DNA of 64,000 nucleotides from Escherichia coli (GTDB lineage: Bacteria > Pseudomonadota > Gammaproteobacteria > Enterobacterales > Enterobacteriaceae): assembly GCF_003334385.1 (NCBI RefSeq), contig NZ_QOWN01000005.1. The stretch is one strand, 5' to 3'. The notes beneath the pieces were generated by a model. It searched no databases, had not been told where the DNA came from, and saw only the letters and a list, made by a program, of their open reading frames with translations. The position numbers and the translations under genes are program-made. Positions 6,043 through 63,548 of this stretch are shown one piece after another. Positions within the stretch are counted from its first letter, which is position 1. The number at the start of each line of letters is the position of its first letter.

Positions 6043-7416
6043 ATGATGGAAGGTCAACAGCACGGCGAGCAGCTAAAGCGCGGCCTTAAAAACCGCCATA
6101 TTCAGCTTATCGCGCTGGGTGGCGCGATAGGGACCGGGTTATTCCTGGGTAGCGCCTCCGTAATACAGTCCGCAGGGCCAGGGATTATCCTGGGTTACGC
6201 CATTGCTGGTTTTATCGCCTTTCTGATCATGCGTCAGCTGGGTGAAATGGTGGTCGAAGAACCTGTCGCAGGCTCCTTTAGCCACTTTGCTTATAAATAC
6301 TGGGGCAGTTTTGCCGGTTTCGCCTCTGGCTGGAACTACTGGGTACTGTACGTTTTAGTTGCCATGGCTGAGCTGACTGCCGTGGGTAAATACATTCAGT
6401 TCTGGTATCCGGAAATCCCCACCTGGGTTTCTGCCGCCGTATTCTTTGTGGTGATTAACGCCATCAACCTGACCAACGTTAAAGTGTTTGGCGAGATGGA
6501 GTTCTGGTTTGCCATTATCAAAGTTATCGCGGTGGTAGCGATGATCATCTTCGGCGGCTGGCTGCTATTCAGTGGCAACGGCGGCCCGCAGGCGACCGTT
6601 AGCAACCTGTGGGATCAGGGTGGTTTCCTGCCGCACGGCTTCACCGGGCTGGTGATGATGATGGCGATTATCATGTTCTCGTTCGGTGGTCTGGAACTGG
6701 TGGGGATCACCGCAGCAGAAGCTGATAACCCGGAGCAAAGTATACCGAAAGCAACTAACCAGGTTATCTACCGCATCCTGATTTTCTATATTGGTTCGTT
6801 AGCCGTTCTGCTCTCACTGATGCCGTGGACCCGCGTTACCGCCGATACCAGTCCGTTTGTGCTGATCTTCCACGAGTTAGGCGATACCTTTGTGGCGAAT
6901 GCGCTGAACATCGTGGTACTGACTGCGGCGCTCTCCGTGTACAACAGCTGCGTATATTGCAACAGCCGTATGCTGTTTGGTCTGGCACAACAGGGTAATG
7001 CGCCAAAAGCGCTGGCGTCTGTCGATAAACGTGGTGTACCAGTAAATACCATTCTGGTGTCTGCACTGGTAACGGCGTTGTGCGTACTGATTAACTACCT
7101 TGCCCCAGAGTCCGCTTTCGGACTGTTAATGGCGCTGGTGGTATCTGCACTGGTAATCAACTGGGCGATGATTAGCCTGGCGCATATGAAATTCCGTCGC
7201 GCCAAGCAGGAACAAGGCGTGGTAACTCGCTTCCCTGCTCTACTTTATCCGCTGGGTAACTGGATCTGCCTGCTGTTTATGGCGGCGGTACTGGTGATTA
7301 TGCTGATGACCCCAGGAATGGCGATTTCGGTATACCTGATCCCGGTATGGCTGATCGTGTTAGGTATCGGCTATCTGTTTAAAGAGAAAACCGCCAAAGC
7401 CGTAAAAGCGCATTAA
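6043..7416 (+). CDS. aroP: Aromatic amino acid:H+ symporter (APC family)
   Basis: 457-aa polytopic membrane ORF beginning MMEGQQHGEQLKRGLKNRHIQLIALGGAIGTGLFLG. Confidence 0.96.
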   Translation: MMEGQQHGEQLKRGLKNRHIQLIALGGAIGTGLFLGSASVIQSAGPGIILGYAIAGFIAFLIMRQLGEMVVEEPVAGSFSHFAYKYWGSFAGFASGWNYWVLYVLVAMAELTAVGKYIQFWYPEIPTWVSAAVFFVVINAINLTNVKVFGEMEFWFAIIKVIAVVAMIIFGGWLLFSGNGGPQATVSNLWDQGGFLPHGFTGLVMMMAIIMFSFGGLELVGITAAEADNPEQSIPKATNQVIYRILIFYIGSLAVLLSLMPWTRVTADTSPFVLIFHELGDTFVANALNIVVLTAALSVYNSCVYCNSRMLFGLAQQGNAPKALASVDKRGVPVNTILVSALVTALCVLINYLAPESAFGLLMALVVSALVINWAMISLAHMKFRRAKQEQGVVTRFPALLYPLGNWICLLFMAAVLVIMLMTPGMAISVYLIPVWLIVLGIGYLFKEKTAKAVKAH

Positions 7417-10494: not shown

Positions 10495-12285
10495 ATGAAT
10501 ATTCCACAGCTCACTGCCCTGTGTCTGCGTTATCATGGAGTCTTGCTGGATGCCAGCGAAGAGGTGGTTCATGTTGCGGTAGTCGATGCACCTTCGCATG
10601 AGCTACTGGACGCATTGCATTTCGCTACCACCAAACGTATTGAGATCACCTGCTGGACGCGCCAACAAATGGAAGGTCACGCCAGTCGCACACAACAGAC
10701 ATTGCCCGTAGCTGTTCAGGAGAAGCATCAGCCCAAAGCAGAGTTGCTAACTCGAACGTTACAATCTGCGCTGGAACAACGCGCGTCTGATATTCATATC
10801 GAACCAGCGGACAATGCCTACCGCATCCGCTTGCGTATCGACGGCGTATTGCATCCTTTACCGGATGTTTCACCGGATGCCGGAGTCGCATTAACCGCCA
10901 GATTAAAAGTGCTGGGAAACCTGGATATTGCGGAACATCGCCTGCCGCAGGACGGGCAATTCACTGTCGAACTGGCAGGAAACGCCGTCTCATTTCGTAT
11001 TGCGACCTTACCATGTCGGGGTGGTGAAAAGGTGGTATTAAGGTTGTTACAGCAGGTGGGTCAGGCACTGGATGTCAACACGCTTGGAATGCAGCCGTTA
11101 CAACTGGCGGACTTTGCTCATGCCTTGCAACAACCACAGGGACTGGTGCTGGTAACTGGCCCTACCGGCAGCGGCAAAACGGTCACGCTTTATAGTGCCC
11201 TGCAAAAGCTGAATACCGCTGACATTAATATTTGTAGCGTCGAAGATCCAGTTGAGATCCCCATAGCCGGACTAAACCAGACGCAAATCCATCCGCGTGC
11301 CGGACTCACCTTTCAGGGCGTTTTGCGTGCGTTATTGCGCCAGGATCCTGACGTCATCATGATCGGAGAGATCCGCGATGGCGAAACAGCAGAGATCGCT
11401 ATTAAAGCGGCGCAAACTGGTCACCTGGTGTTGTCTACCCTACACACTAATTCCACCTGCGAAACGCTGGTACGTTTACAGCAAATGGGGGTCGCCCGCT
11501 GGATGCTATCATCGGCGCTTACGCTGGTAATAGCCCAGCGTCAGTTGACCGACAAAGTGAAATCAGCGTTACGTTATCCCATCATCATTTTAGCGATGGC
11601 AATCATGGTGGTTGTGGCAATGCTGCATTTTGTTCTGCCGGAGTTTGCCGCTATCTATAAGACCTTCAACACCCCACTACCGGCACTAACGCAGGGGATC
11701 ATGACGCTGGCAGACTTTAGTGGCGAATGGAGCTGGCTGCTGGTGTTGTTCGGCTTTCTGCTGGCGATAGCCAATAAGTTGCTGATGCGCCGACCGACCT
11801 GGCTTATAGTGCGGCAGAAATTGCTGTTACGCATCCCGATTATGGGTTCACTGATGCGGGGACAAAAACTCACGCAGATCTTTACGATTCTGGCGCTGAC
11901 ACAAAGTGCAGGCATTACTTTTTTACAGGGCGTAGAGAGCGTCAGAGAAACAATGCGCTGCCCGTACTGGGTGCAACTTCTGACACAAATCCAGCACGAT
12001 ATCAGTAACGGTCAACCCATCTGGCTGGCGCTAAAAAATACCGGTGAGTTTAGCCCGCTCTGTTTGCAATTAGTGAGAACAGGAGAGGCATCCGGCTCTC
12101 TGGATCTCATGTTAGACAACCTCGCCCATCATCATCGGGAAAACACAATGGCGCTGGCGGATAACCTCGCAGCCTTACTGGAACCGGCGTTGCTGATCAT
12201 AACGGGAGGAATTATTGGTACGCTGGTGGTGGCAATGTATCTGCCAATTTTCCATTTAGGCGATGCGATGAGTGGGATGGGATAA
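10495..12285 (+). CDS. hofB/hofC: Chimeric ORF: GspE/PilB-type secretion ATPase (HofB-like residues ~1-349) fused in frame to the C-terminal ~247 residues of a GspF/PilC-type platform protein (HofC-like); probably a deletion remnant, possibly non-functional
   Basis: Single 596-aa ORF. Walker A LVLVTGPTGSGKT at aa 218-230, Asp box DPDVIMIGEIRD, His box GHLVLSTLHTNS, then ...ALTLVIAQR | QLTDKVKSALRYPIIILAMAIMVVVAML... (junction near nt 11536-11545) continuing as a polytopic membrane protein that ends LLEPALLIITGGIIGTLVVAMYLPIF. No GspE C-terminal tetracysteine domain and no GspF N-terminal cytoplasmic domain. Confidence 0.8.
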   Translation: MNIPQLTALCLRYHGVLLDASEEVVHVAVVDAPSHELLDALHFATTKRIEITCWTRQQMEGHASRTQQTLPVAVQEKHQPKAELLTRTLQSALEQRASDIHIEPADNAYRIRLRIDGVLHPLPDVSPDAGVALTARLKVLGNLDIAEHRLPQDGQFTVELAGNAVSFRIATLPCRGGEKVVLRLLQQVGQALDVNTLGMQPLQLADFAHALQQPQGLVLVTGPTGSGKTVTLYSALQKLNTADINICSVEDPVEIPIAGLNQTQIHPRAGLTFQGVLRALLRQDPDVIMIGEIRDGETAEIAIKAAQTGHLVLSTLHTNSTCETLVRLQQMGVARWMLSSALTLVIAQRQLTDKVKSALRYPIIILAMAIMVVVAMLHFVLPEFAAIYKTFNTPLPALTQGIMTLADFSGEWSWLLVLFGFLLAIANKLLMRRPTWLIVRQKLLLRIPIMGSLMRGQKLTQIFTILALTQSAGITFLQGVESVRETMRCPYWVQLLTQIQHDISNGQPIWLALKNTGEFSPLCLQLVRTGEASGSLDLMLDNLAHHHRENTMALADNLAALLEPALLIITGGIIGTLVVAMYLPIFHLGDAMSGMG

Positions 12286-15164: not shown

Positions 15165-15373
<209 letters not shown>

Positions 15374-15377
<4 letters not shown>

Positions 15378-42439: not shown

Positions 42440-43098
42440 ACTTAACTCCACTGTCACACTTAACTCCCTTTCCCTTATTGGAATGCAGAGAAATAATCCT
42501 GAAGAATATGATTTATCATGCATATAAAATAAGAAAAAGCAAAATGAGTAAAATTCGGAAAACATAAAGATACGGGTTCTGATAAAAACAGAATCCATTG
42601 CCGTGGAATGAGTCATTTACCACAGCATAATAATCCATAATATTTTTGTTGCGAAAACAATCTAATCATAACTACCGCGAATACTCAATCATCTACAAAA
42701 TGGATTAAATGTGCTTATTTAATAATTAATTTATATATTTAATGCATTAATTCTTAACATTAATTGATCAATAATATTCACCAAATCAATATCAAAAAAA
42801 ATCGCAAAACATATAATTCAATACAAATCATCAGGATAGGTTTTGCAACGCGTGCATTTTGTCCCCTTTTTCCTCGTTGATTAGATGCAAAAATTTATGC
42901 TGAAATATGTCAACCGATGAAAAGCGTCGGTAGTTAAGCAGAAATTAATATCGCTTACTTTAACCACCGCAGCACAATTAGCTAATTTTACGGATGCAGA
43001 ACTCACGCTGGCGGGACGTTTTTATTGCGTCAGGGTTGACATCCGTTTTTGTATCCAGTAACTCTAAAAGCATATCGCATTCATCTGGAGCTGATTTA

Positions 43099-56420: not shown

Positions 56421-58459
<2,039 letters not shown>

Positions 58460-58469
58460 GGACACGATA

Positions 58470-59972
58470 ATGACGATTTTTGATAATTATGAAGTGTGGT
58501 TTGTCATTGGCAGCCAGCATCTGTATGGCCCGGAAACCCTGCGTCAGGTCACCCAACATGCCGAGCACGTCGTTAATGCGCTGAATACGGAAGCGAAACT
58601 GCCCTGCAAACTGGTGTTGAAACCGCTGGGCACCACGCCGGATGAAATCACCGCTATTTGCCGCGACGCGAATTACGACGATCGTTGCGCTGGTCTGGTG
58701 GTGTGGCTGCACACCTTCTCCCCGGCCAAAATGTGGATCAACGGCCTGACCATGCTCAACAAACCGTTGCTGCAATTCCACACCCAGTTCAACGCGGCGC
58801 TGCCGTGGGACAGTATCGATATGGACTTTATGAACCTGAACCAGACTGCACATGGCGGTCGCGAGTTCGGCTTCATTGGCGCGCGTATGCGTCAGCAACA
58901 TGCCGTGGTTACCGGTCACTGGCAGGATAAACAAGCCCATGAGCGTATCGGCTCCTGGATGCGTCAGGCGGTCTCTAAACAGGATACCCGTCATCTGAAA
59001 GTCTGCCGATTTGGCGATAACATGCGTGAAGTGGCGGTCACCGATGGCGATAAAGTTGCCGCACAGATCAAGTTCGGTTTCTCCGTCAATACCTGGGCGG
59101 TTGGCGATCTGGTGCAGGTGGTGAACTCCATCAGCGACGGCGATGTTAACGCGCTGGTCGATGAGTACGAAAGCTGCTACACCATGACGCCTGCCACACA
59201 AATCCACGGCAAAAAACGACAGAACGTGCTGGAAGCGGCGCGTATTGAGCTGGGGATGAAGCGTTTCCTGGAACAAGGTGGCTTCCACGCGTTCACCACC
59301 ACCTTTGAAGATTTGCACGGTCTGAAACAGCTTCCTGGTCTGGCCGTACAGCGTCTGATGCAGCAGGGTTACGGCTTTGCGGGCGAAGGCGACTGGAAAA
59401 CTGCCGCCCTGCTTCGCATCATGAAGGTGATGTCAACCGGTCTGCAGGGCGGCACCTCCTTTATGGAGGACTACACCTATCACTTCGAGAAAGGTAATGA
59501 CCTGGTGCTCGGCTCCCATATGCTGGAAGTCTGCCCGTCGATCGCCGCAGAAGAGAAACCGATCCTCGACGTTCAGCATCTCGGTATTGGTGGTAAGGAC
59601 GATCCTGCCCGCCTGATCTTCAATACCCAAACCGGCCCAGCGATTGTCGCCAGCTTGATTGATCTCGGCGATCGTTACCGTCTACTGGTTAACTGCATCG
59701 ACACGGTGAAAACACCGCACTCCCTGCCGAAACTGCCGGTGGCGAATGCGCTGTGGAAAGCGCAACCGGATCTGCCAACTGCTTCCGAAGCGTGGATCCT
59801 CGCTGGTGGCGCGCACCATACCGTCTTCAGCCATGCACTGAACCTCAACGATATGCGCCAATTCGCCGAGATGCACGACATTGAAATCACGGTGATTGAT
59901 AACGACACACGCCTGCCAGCGTTTAAAGACGCGCTGCGCTGGAACGAAGTGTATTACGGGTTTCGTCGCTAA
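58470..59972 (+). CDS. araA: L-arabinose isomerase
   Basis: Track ORF trimmed to [27 protein letters not shown]... (500 aa). Confidence 0.97.
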
Positions 59973-59978
59973 GTAGCC

Positions 59979-60413
59979 GCATCCGGTATGTAACACCTGA
60001 TGCGACGCTGACGCGTCTTATCTGGCCTACACGCTGCGATTTTGTAGGCCGGATAAGCAAAGCGCATCCGGCATTCAACGCCTGATGCGACGCTGGCGCG
60101 TCTTATCAGGCCTACGCGCTGCGATTTTGTAGGCCGGATAAGCAAAGCGCATCCGGCATTCAACGCCTGATGCGACGCTGGCGCGTCTTATCAGGCCTAC
60201 GCGCTGCGATTTTGTAGGCCGGATAAGCAAAGCGCATCCGGCATTCAACGCCTGATGCGACGCTGGCGCGTCTTATCAGGCCTACGCGCTGCGATTTTGT
60301 AGGCCGGATAAGCAAAGCGCATCCGGCATTCAACGCCTGATGCGACGCTGGCGCGTCTTATCAGGCCTACACGCTGCGATTTTGTAGGCCGGATAAGCAA
60401 AGCGCATCCGGCA
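59979..60413. repeat. Tandem BIME array: five complete 85-bp units (starting at 59979, 60064, 60149, 60234, 60319) plus a partial sixth, each unit holding an inverted REP pair
   Basis: Unit GCATCCGGCATTCAACGCCTGATGCGACGCTGGCGCGTCTTATCAGGCCTACGCGCTGCGATTTTGTAGGCCGGATAAGCAAAGC repeats with an exact 85-bp period; fills the araA-araD spacer. Confidence 0.9.
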
Positions 60414-60426
60414 CGAAGGAGTCAAC

Positions 60427-61122
60427 ATGTTAGAAGATCTCAAACGCCAGGTATTAGAAGCCAACCTGGCGCTGCCAAAACACAACCTGGTCACGCTCAC
60501 ATGGGGCAACGTCAGCGCCGTTGATCGCGAGCGCGGCGTCTTTGTGATCAAACCTTCCGGCGTCGATTACAGCGTCATGACCGCTGACGATATGGTCGTG
60601 GTTAGCATCGAAACCGGTGAAGTGGTTGAAGGTACGAAAAAGCCCTCCTCCGACACGCCAACTCACCGGCTGCTCTATCAGGCATTCCCCTCCATTGGCG
60701 GCATTGTGCATACGCACTCGCGCCACGCCACCATCTGGGCGCAGGCGGGTCAGTCGATTCCAGCAACCGGCACCACCCACGCCGACTATTTCTACGGCAC
60801 CATTCCCTGCACCCGCAAAATGACCGACGCAGAAATCAACGGCGAATATGAGTGGGAAACCGGTAACGTCATCGTAGAAACCTTTGAAAAACAGGGTATC
60901 GATGCAGCGCAAATGCCCGGCGTTCTGGTCCATTCCCACGGCCCGTTTGCATGGGGCAAAAATGCCGAAGATGCGGTGCATAACGCCATCGTGCTGGAAG
61001 AGGTCGCTTATATGGGGATATTCTGCCGTCAGTTAGCGCCGCAGTTACCGGATATGCAGCAAACGCTGCTGGATAAACACTATCTGCGTAAGCATGGCGC
61101 GAAGGCATATTACGGGCAGTAA
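60427..61122 (+). CDS. araD: L-ribulose-5-phosphate 4-epimerase
   Basis: 231-aa ORF beginning [48 protein letters not shown]. Confidence 0.97.
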
Positions 61123-61196: not shown

Positions 61197-63548
61197 GTGG
61201 CGCAGGCAGGTTTTATCTTAACCCGACACTGGCGGGACACCCCGCAAGGGACAGAAGTCTCCTTCTGGCTGGCGACGGACAACGGGCCGTTGCAGGTTAC
61301 GCTTGCACCGCAAGAGTCCGTGGCGTTTATTCCCGCCGATCAGGTTCCCCGCGCTCAGCATATTTTGCAGGGTGAACAAGGCTTTCGCCTGACACCGCTG
61401 GCGTTAAAGGATTTTCACCGCCAGCCGGTGTATGGCCTTTACTGTCGCGCCCATCGCCAATTGATGAATTACGAAAAGCGCCTGCGTGAAGGTGGCGTTA
61501 CCGTCTACGAGGCCGATGTGCGTCCGCCAGAACGCTATCTGATGGAGCGGTTTATCACCTCACCGGTGTGGGTCGAGGGTGATATGCACAATGGCACTAT
61601 CGTTAATGCCCGTCTGAAACCGCATCCCGACTATCGTCCGCCGCTCAAGTGGGTTTCTATAGATATTGAAACCACCCGCCACGGTGAGCTGTACTGCATC
61701 GGCCTGGAAGGCTGCGGGCAGCGCATCGTTTATATGCTGGGGCCGGAGAATGGCGACGCCTCCTCGCTTGATTTCGAACTGGAATACGTCGCCAGCCGCC
61801 CGCAGTTGCTGGAAAAACTCAACGCCTGGTTTGCCAACTACGATCCTGATGTGATCATCGGTTGGAACGTGGTGCAGTTCGATCTGCGAATGCTGCAAAA
61901 ACATGCCGAGCGTTACCGTCTTCCGCTGCGTCTTGGGCGCGATAATAGCGAGCTGGAGTGGCGCGAGCACGGCTTTAAAAACGGCGTCTTTTTTGCCCAG
62001 GCTAAAGGTCGGCTAATTATCGACGGTATCGAGGCGCTGAAATCCGCGTTCTGGAATTTCTCTTCATTCTCGCTGGAAACTGTCGCTCAGGAGCTATTAG
62101 GCGAAGGAAAATCTATCGATAACCCGTGGGATCGAATGGACGAAATTGACCGCCGTTTCGCCGAAGATAAACCTGCGCTGGCAACTTATAACCTGAAAGA
62201 TTGCGAGCTGGTGACGCAGATCTTCCACAAAACTGAAATCATGCCATTTTTACTCGAACGGGCAACGGTGAACGGCCTGCCGGTGGACCGACACGGCGGT
62301 TCGGTGGCGGCATTTGGTCATCTCTATTTTCCGCGAATGCATCGCGCTGGTTATGTCGCGCCTAATCTCGGCGAAGTGCCGCCGCACGCCAGCCCTGGCG
62401 GCTACGTGATGGATTCACGGCCAGGGCTTTATGATTCAGTGCTGGTGCTGGACTATAAAAGCCTGTACCCGTCGATCATCCGCACCTTTCTGATTGATCC
62501 CGTCGGGCTGGTGGAAGGCATGGCGCAGCCTGATCCAGAGCACAGTACCGAAGGTTTTCTCGATGCCTGGTTCTCGCGAGAAAAACATTGCCTGCCGGAG
62601 ATTGTGACTAACATCTGGCACGGGCGCGATGAAGCCAAACGCCAGGGTAACAAACCGCTGTCGCAGGCGCTGAAAATCATCATGAATGCCTTTTATGGCG
62701 TGCTCGGCACCACCGCCTGCCGCTTCTTCGATCCGCGGCTGGCATCGTCGATCACCATGCGTGGTCATCAGATCATGCGGCAAACCAAAGCGTTGATTGA
62801 AGCACAGGGCTACGACGTTATCTACGGCGATACCGACTCAACGTTTGTCTGGCTGAAAGGCGCACATTCGGAAGAAGAAGCGGCGAAAATCGGTCGTGCA
62901 CTGGTGCAGCACGTTAACGCCTGGTGGGCGGAAACGCTGCAAAAACAACGGCTGACCAGCGCATTAGAACTGGAGTATGAAACCCATTTCTGCCGTTTTC
63001 TGATGCCAACCATTCGCGGAGCCGATACCGGCAGTAAAAAGCGTTATGCCGGACTGATTCAGGAGGGCGACAAGCAGCGGATGGTGTTTAAAGGGCTGGA
63101 AACCGTGCGCACCGACTGGACGCCGCTGGCCCAGCAGTTTCAGCAGGAGCTATACCTGCGCATCTTCCGCAACGAGCCATATCAGGAATATGTACGCGAA
63201 ACCATCGACAAACTGATGGCGGGTGAACTGGATGCGCGACTGGTTTACCGTAAACGCCTTCGCCGTCCGCTGAGCGAGTATCAGCGTAATGTGCCGCCTC
63301 ATGTACGCGCCGCTCGCCTTGCCGATGAAGAAAACCAAAAGCGTGGTCGCCCCTTGCAATATCAGAATCGCGGCACCATTAAGTACGTATGGACCACCAA
63401 CGGCCCGGAGCCGCTGGACTACCAACGTTCACCACTGGATTACGAACACTATCTGACCCGCCAGCTACAACCCGTGGCGGAGGGAATACTCCCTTTTATT
63501 GAGGATAATTTTGCTACACTTATGACCGGGCAACTTGGGCTATTTTGA
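61197..63548 (+). CDS. polB: DNA polymerase II (family B, SOS-inducible)
   Basis: 783-aa reading with GTG start; exonuclease motif FDIETT, polymerase motifs [10 protein letters not shown] and YGDTDS. Confidence 0.97.

Follow-up and report, generated by a model that had tools for sequence, protein, structure and literature searches.

The spacer between araA and araD in the 64,000-nucleotide stretch of Escherichia coli DNA analysed here (the window) raises three questions: what kind of repeat fills it, how it came to its length, and what it does as DNA and as part of the araBAD mRNA. We propose that it is, very probably, a rare five-unit allele of the E. coli araA-araD BIME-2, with a recent gain of two units, acting as a gyrase site and forming RNA hairpins that would bias expression to araBA. 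The element, its class, its interactions with gyrase and TnpA-REP and its copy-number polymorphism have all been published already, and the sole new item is the rare length allele, with a five-unit count read from the assembly.

The spacer, delimited by the araA stop and the araD start, covers 454 bp (59973-60426), and the araA product of the window has the same protein accession as that of K-12 in related records. Tandem Repeats Finder detects one array only, at 59978-60413, with a period of 85, 5.1 copies, 97% matches, 0% indels and a score of 816. The original prediction of a REP/BIME array of five units with an 85-bp period in a 454-bp spacer was accurate in coordinates, period and copy number. 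When the array is laid out in rows of 85 bp, the three internal units (60058-60142, 60143-60227, and 60228-60312) are all identical, and the first and last units differ from them at five positions and one position, respectively. Each 85-bp unit carries one 36-nt Z2 palindrome, GCCTGATGCGACGCTGGCGCGTCTTATCAGGCCTAC, and one inverted 29-nt Y palindrome, GTAGGCCGGATAAGCAAAGCGCATCCGGC, giving five Z2 and five Y palindromes in alternation plus a 14-nt Y remnant, with coordinates obtained by regular expressions (Table 1). Two kinds of linkers join them, one of 13 nt placed tail-to-tail (G/ACGCTGCGATTTT) and one of 7 nt placed head-to-head (ATTCAAC), the latter occurring four times between successive units. 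By the same regular expressions, GTAG opens every Y unit and CTAC closes every Z2 unit. The array is wholly extragenic, lying between the stop of araA and the start of araD, both on the + strand. Small minus-strand ORFs in the array (51 to 73 aa, with TTG starts) were rejected as by-products of the periodic sequence, since a period of 85 bp is not divisible by three and the frame is lost from unit to unit.

Table 1. Features of the araA-araD spacer and of the flanking genes (window coordinates)
Feature	Positions	Strand	Evidence
araB	56759-58459	+	NCBIfam equivalog model, score far over cut-off
araA (L-arabinose isomerase), stop TAA at 59970-59972	58470-59972	+	NCBIfam NF002795, 897.9 bits
Complete BIME-2 array: Y remnant followed by 5 x (Z2, 13-nt linker, inverted Y)	59973-60413	+	Tandem Repeats Finder, regular expressions, K-12 annotation
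Truncated Y remnant GTAGCCGCATCCGG, begins on the base after the araA stop	59973-59986	+	Regular expression
Z2 no. 1, variant (A at 59995, TGACGCG, ATCTGG)	59995-60030	+	Regular expression
Y no. 1, inverted, starts GTAG	60044-60072	+	Regular expression
Z2 no. 2	60080-60115	+	Regular expression
Y no. 2	60129-60157	+	Regular expression
Two units (170 bp) extra relative to MG1655; position by convention, internal units 60058-60312 being identical	60143-60312	+	Row comparison with the MG1655 spacer; blastn overlap of two MG1655 alignments
Z2 no. 3	60165-60200	+	Regular expression
Y no. 3	60214-60242	+	Regular expression
Z2 no. 4	60250-60285	+	Regular expression
Y no. 4	60299-60327	+	Regular expression
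Z2 no. 5	60335-60370	+	Regular expression
Y no. 5, end 3 nt upstream of the araD Shine-Dalgarno	60384-60412	+	Regular expression
araD ribosome-binding site AAGGAG, 5 nt upstream of the ATG	60416-60421	+	Sequence inspection
araD (L-ribulose-5-phosphate 4-epimerase), ATG at 60427	60427-61122	+	TIGR00760, 449 bits
polB	61197-63548	+	NCBIfam equivalog model, score far over cut-off

Judged by its sequence, the array is the BIME-2 element known at this E. coli locus. Its features are (i) alternating inverted Y and Z2 palindromes with GTAG/CTAC feet in an extragenic 3' position, (ii) conserved tandem units, (iii) short linkers with neither an L linker nor an IHF site, and (iv) a dispersed family, the search query matching at a median of 14 sites in each E. 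coli genome. The palindromes were named Y and Z2 from the published annotation and from the CCGGAT/CCTGAT distinction of the literature. BIME-2 elements are tandem z2 + y pairs with short linkers, whereas BIME-1 elements pair Y with Z1 in single copy and carry an IHF site in a long L linker (Ton-Hoang et al. 2012, PMC3333891). The array resembles the BIME-1 or RIB/RIP type as an inverted REP pair at the 3' end of a transcription unit, but differs from it by its Z2 palindromes, its short linkers and the absence of an IHF consensus. Indeed, the IHF consensus WATCAANNNNTTR has five matches in the window and none in the array (59973-60426), and one of the five falls inside another REP element (15181-15374), which serves as a positive control for the scan. 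We therefore reject the original suggestion that the array binds IHF, a property that belongs to the L linker of BIME-1.

The REP element at 15181-15374 forms a second cluster, in the mutT-yacG spacer, with two Z/Y pairs that match the Rfam naRNA4 family at 78 bits on the minus strand. Unlike the araA-araD array, it has an IHF consensus, TATCAATGAGTTA, at 15273-15285 between its Z/Y pairs.

The naRNA4 family (RF02564) also matches each Y + Z2 pair of the araA-araD array, four times in all on the + strand, at a marginal 60.2 bits against a gathering score of 59.5, and the minus-strand matches in the array (41.7 bits) are under threshold. These gathering-level matches could be taken to mean that the units encode small RNAs of the naRNA4 kind, associated with the nucleoid and acting with HU. 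We regard this as most improbable: the score is marginal, and the family models a generic Z2 + Y REP pair, so that the match re-identifies a BIME-2. RF02564 derives from REP325, an array of 12 palindromes in which each two-hairpin segment is a Z2 + Y (bioRxiv 10.64898/2026.03.23.713779), and REP325 itself, the source of naRNA4, is reported to make no measurable contribution to nucleoid compaction (bioRxiv 10.64898/2026.03.23.713779). Relative to the model, the array has a shorter Y unit, with 66 nt matched against a 77-nt model, and its 60.2 bits compare with the 78 bits of the mutT-yacG element. REP325, which lies between yjdM and yjdN, shares with the array the alternating tandem Z2/Y arrangement between co-directional genes and an Rfam score above gathering level, and differs from it in locus, linkers and palindrome number (12 versus 10). 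E. coli REP clusters hold from 1 to 12 palindromes (bioRxiv 10.64898/2026.03.23.713779); the ten palindromes of the window are thus within the known range of the class, yet are the highest number seen at the araA-araD locus.

Within the BIME-2 assignment, the closest comparison is with the araD-araA element of K-12 MG1655, which Sutormin et al. 2019 (PMC6379681) give in their supplementary tables as a BIME-2 at 66566-66813. The MG1655 spacer has three units and is 284 bp long, as given by the coordinates of araD (65855-66550) and araA (66835-68337), confirming the length of about 284 bp and the two extra units (170 bp) given in the original prediction. Both elements share the locus, the flanking genes, the Y remnant, the sequences of the first, internal and last units and the linkers; they differ by three units versus five and by one base. 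Adding two exact copies of the internal unit to the MG1655 spacer, together with a single SNP (A for G at 59995), gives the window spacer. This position is the first base of Z2 no. 1, where the A breaks the basal pair of that hairpin.

Over the whole window, comparison with MG1655 62977-127593 gave the 170-bp array gain, nine substitutions and one 787-bp deletion. The substitutions, all transitions, are at 7242, 24252, 33232, 37332, 38522, 42642, 51552, 55285, and 59995, the last being the only one inside the array. The nearest genome among the matches listed, in a ranking done with a 24-kb stretch covering six window SNPs, is the human commensal SCU-104, which has three units. At the eight SNP positions that could be compared (7242 lies beyond the region compared), SCU-104 shares four with the window (33232, 37332, 55285, and 59995), and the four others are all G:C to A:T. 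Stbl4 and 'TOP10' records have the MG1655 base at 42642, 51552, 55285, and 59995, and at 59995 the XL10-Gold record also has the G of MG1655. The SNPs shared with SCU-104 thus indicate that the window strain is not a laboratory derivative of K-12 but a natural strain closely related to it.

The 787-bp deletion (MG1655 115265-116051) lies between 11-bp direct repeats, AGCCCAGCGTC, with its junction at 11529-11542 of the window. By this loss the 5' part of hofB is fused with the 3' part of hofC, leaving a single open frame of ~596 aa (open segment 10486-12285), and this junction was found in 0 of the 5,426 complete E. coli genomes.

How common is a five-unit spacer? The araA-araD region has a match in each of the 5,426 complete E. 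coli genomes, and spacer lengths were tallied in 58 informative genomes picked at regular intervals along the match ranking. Three units (284 bp) were found in 22 of the 58 and two units (199 or 198 bp) in 13; one unit was found either in a 114-bp spacer (7 genomes) or in a 168-bp spacer together with a different GC-rich insert (15 genomes). Five units (454 bp) were found in a single genome of this sample, the top-ranked record. Lengths of 114, 199, 284, 369, and 454 bp thus form an allelic series of one to five units, with most genomes at one to three. Among the matches listed, five units occur in 3 of the 5,426 complete genomes, those of Stbl4 (CP081009), XL10-Gold (CP081008) and TOP10 (CP080620), and four units in GM4792, XL1-Blue (CP081007), JX21CE35 (chicken, China) and FACU 2024 (Egypt). 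A query made of three internal units in succession, for which a perfect match is possible only in arrays of at least five units and which misses arrays of diverged units, likewise gave 100% only in the Stbl4, XL10-Gold and TOP10 records, and 99.4 to 99.6% in the four-unit records, among the matches listed.

The 168-bp spacer, present in about a quarter of the sampled genomes (e.g., NZ_CP123009.1, strain NWU_3, positions 301-468 of the extracted stretch), has one BIME unit followed by a GC-rich palindromic insert, TTGTTTTCCCCCTCGCCCCTTTGGGGAGAGGGCCGGGGTGAGGGGAAACGACC, and the sequence just upstream of araD is also altered. The insert appears to resemble boxC-type repeats.

The series of one to five units across complete genomes bears out the expectation that copy number varies between strains, and the number of BIME-2 copies at a particular locus has been reported to vary among strains (PMC3333891). 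The associated idea of a strain marker held in part: the array behaves as a VNTR-type marker but fails as a lineage marker, since it is homoplasic, with five units on two first-unit haplotypes. As in a bacterial VNTR, whole units are gained or lost in register, internal units are identical, and alleles form a homoplasic series of one to five units; the unit here differs in being a dispersed structured element with protein partners (gyrase and TnpA-REP). Our literature search found no use of the araA-araD array as a typing VNTR. The unit count would therefore make a poor lineage marker and, because it differs between assemblies of the same laboratory strains, a useful locus on which to test the quality of assembly and polishing.

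Sequence comparison also indicates that the five-unit allele is a rare length variant and that the two-unit gain of the window is recent and recurrent. This is based on the following: (i) SCU-104, the closest genome found on the same first-unit haplotype, has only three units, (ii) the extra units are 100% identical, which points to a recent gain, and (iii) the window has A at 59995 where the five-unit laboratory records have G, so that five units arose on different first-unit haplotypes. Unit number is thus homoplasic, with changes that outpace the accumulation of point mutations. The two added 85-bp units, exact copies of the internal one, were gained recently, most likely by slipped-strand misalignment or unequal sister-strand exchange between identical tandem units, which best explains why identical repeats gained whole units in register.

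A different route to the same allele would be the addition of units by the cleavage and strand-transfer activity of TnpA-REP (RAYT) instead of replication slippage. Partial BIMEs of the MG1655 araD-A element (oligonucleotides B315/B316) are, in single-stranded form, substrates of TnpA-REP in vitro, with cleavage at CT sites of the iREP and of the linker, and the recombination products obtained with araD-A substrates include the 'assembly of multiple REPs' (PMC3333891). The unit sequences of the window are identical to the MG1655 units from which these substrates were derived, and the GTAG foot, essential for TnpA-REP recognition and activity, is kept in every palindrome of the array. Nevertheless, the gain of whole 85-bp units in perfect register is what misalignment of tandem repeats would be expected to produce, and we consider an origin by TnpA-REP distinctly unlikely. 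Slippage or unequal exchange is thus the preferred mechanism.

Such turnover could conceivably be fast. Among the records of cloning and expression strains of K-12 and B, several of them recA1 strains, counts of three, four and five units are seen, and such variation is also found independently on a wild haplotype. That the araA-araD BIME-2 is a hypermutable locus altering its length on laboratory time scales, with a unit number that determines how many gyrase sites and mRNA hairpins there are and thereby measurably shifts AraD relative to AraA and AraB, nevertheless seems to us very unlikely; were it true, common laboratory strains would differ unnoticed in the stoichiometry of the arabinose operon.

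A five-unit allele of this rarity calls for scrutiny of the count itself, which for the window is taken from the assembly alone. Three identical 85-bp units in a row (255 bp) are beyond short-read resolution, and the three complete genomes with five units all have neighbouring accession numbers. In this series of records, the count is four for XL1-Blue, five for XL10-Gold, Stbl4 and 'TOP10', four for BL21(DE3) and BL21-RIPL, and three for Rosetta2. By comparison, three units were read directly in MG1655, in the B-type region of MC4100 and in the BL21(DE3) reference NC_012971.2; the K-12 strains W3110-P, C600 and J53 have a matching 884-bp span, and C41, C43, BLR and BL21 TaKaRa have the same two-piece match pattern as NC_012971.2, so that the four units of the neighbouring-accession BL21(DE3) and BL21-RIPL stand against a three-unit pattern in other B-strain records. 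Moreover, NC_012971.2 and MC4100 carry a variant of the unit-2 linker, GCGTTCCGATTTT, that BL21(DE3) CP081489, BL21-RIPL CP083273 and Rosetta2 CP083274 lack despite identical flanks. The missing variant and the four-unit calls stem either from genuine turnover of the repeats or from polishing that homogenised repeat variants.

The 'TOP10' record adds a further caution. Over 41 kb it differs from Stbl4 by a single base, which creates an internal stop in sgrR, and it carries intact araC, araBAD and leuABCD (NZ_CP080620.1, 1-41054 of the extracted region), in conflict with the Delta(ara-leu)7697 genotype of TOP10. Either the 'TOP10' strain label or the independence of the 'TOP10' and Stbl4 records is therefore doubtful, and the three five-unit records may not be independent. 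A literature search found no paper describing the CP080620 and CP081007-9 assemblies, only a user of CP081007. Altogether, the laboratory-strain records with neighbouring accessions are neither clearly independent nor clearly reliable at the array, and the disagreement on unit number between assemblies of nominally the same laboratory strains justifies the caution about assembly voiced at the outset.

These observations could mean that five units are an artefact of assembly or polishing, the real strain having three or four. We judge this unlikely: four-unit alleles occur in apparently unrelated records (GM4792, JX21CE35, and FACU 2024), and expansion past three units therefore looks real; the window retains the unit-specific SNPs of its first and last units; and the usual assembly error in repeats is collapse, not expansion. 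The published variation of BIME-2 copy number between strains (PMC3333891) also speaks for a genuine allele.

As for MC4100 (NZ_HG738867.1, 766-1252 of the extracted region), it combines a B-type spacer with a B-type AraA accession and an araD annotated as frameshifted. A B-type ara region would fit an araD139 allele brought in from E. coli B/r.

What would five units change at the DNA level? A subset of BIME-2 elements is enriched in sites of gyrase cleavage, with Y palindromes cut much more often than Z2, and the gyrase signal rises, rather than falls, when transcription is blocked (PMC6379681). In the MG1655 araA-araD BIME-2, Topo-Seq found three gyrase cleavage sites under ciprofloxacin (Cfx) and three under rifampicin plus ciprofloxacin (RifCfx), while Espeli and Boccard (1997) had reported two cuts in this element, as noted in the same study (PMC6379681). 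Gyrase action at the array, as originally predicted, is thus documented for the three-unit K-12 allele. As DNA, the element would act as a transcription-independent gyrase site cut mainly in Y, as documented for that allele, and five units should bring more gyrase sites and more hairpins.

As RNA, the spacer is predicted to be strongly folded. The whole spacer gave -229.7 kcal/mol (z -7.09), and no shuffled sequence folded as well. Folded alone, the hairpins gave -21.4 kcal/mol for Z2 (Z2 no. 2, z -5.48) and -14.3 kcal/mol for Y (Y no. 1). In the predicted centroid structure each palindrome forms its own hairpin, i.e., ten in all on the araBAD mRNA strand, and the 14-nt Y remnant can base-pair with the first of the two arms of Z2 no. 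1. Scans of 59700-60700 for sigma-70-like promoters and for intrinsic-terminator-like sites found none; in the 13-nt linker, TTTT comes 9 nt past the Z2 stem rather than directly after it, where the U run of a terminator was sought.

REPs between tandem genes have been found to raise the ratio of upstream to downstream expression, with a stronger effect for canonical REPs, and REP325 both causes partial Rho-dependent termination and blocks decay of the upstream transcript; the effects of REPs nevertheless vary widely with context, with no general effect on half-life (bioRxiv 10.64898/2026.03.23.713779). Stable stem-loops, some REPs among them, shield 3' ends from PNPase and RNase II (PMC6061677). 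From this general REP literature, the ten mRNA hairpins would block 3'-to-5' exonucleases and partly halt read-through, and the array would thus bias araBAD expression to araB and araA over araD. On REPs and araBAD expression specifically, the literature search found only incidental mentions.

Unit number could also have been selected as a means of tuning AraD against AraB and AraA, with an adaptive five-unit allele. The general upstream bias of REPs between tandem genes (bioRxiv 10.64898/2026.03.23.713779), the position of the array between araA and araD with its end abutting the araD ribosome-binding site, and the coexistence of one- to five-unit alleles in E. coli are all compatible with such selection. 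Against this, five units are very rare among the matches listed, where they occur in laboratory cloning strains that are not grown on arabinose, and they appear on two haplotypes with three-unit close relatives, a pattern that fits neutral instability. We hold adaptive tuning to be highly improbable. Should unit number alter araD expression, strains used for arabinose-inducible systems or for studies of arabinose metabolism could differ subtly.

Elsewhere in the window, Rfam matches at gathering level were obtained for PssrA (RF02797, 21494-21583, minus strand), tp2 (RF02030, 4580-4693, + strand) and STnc40 (RF02057, 15778-15847, minus strand), and the expected SgrS, leu leader and TPP riboswitch were matched as well.
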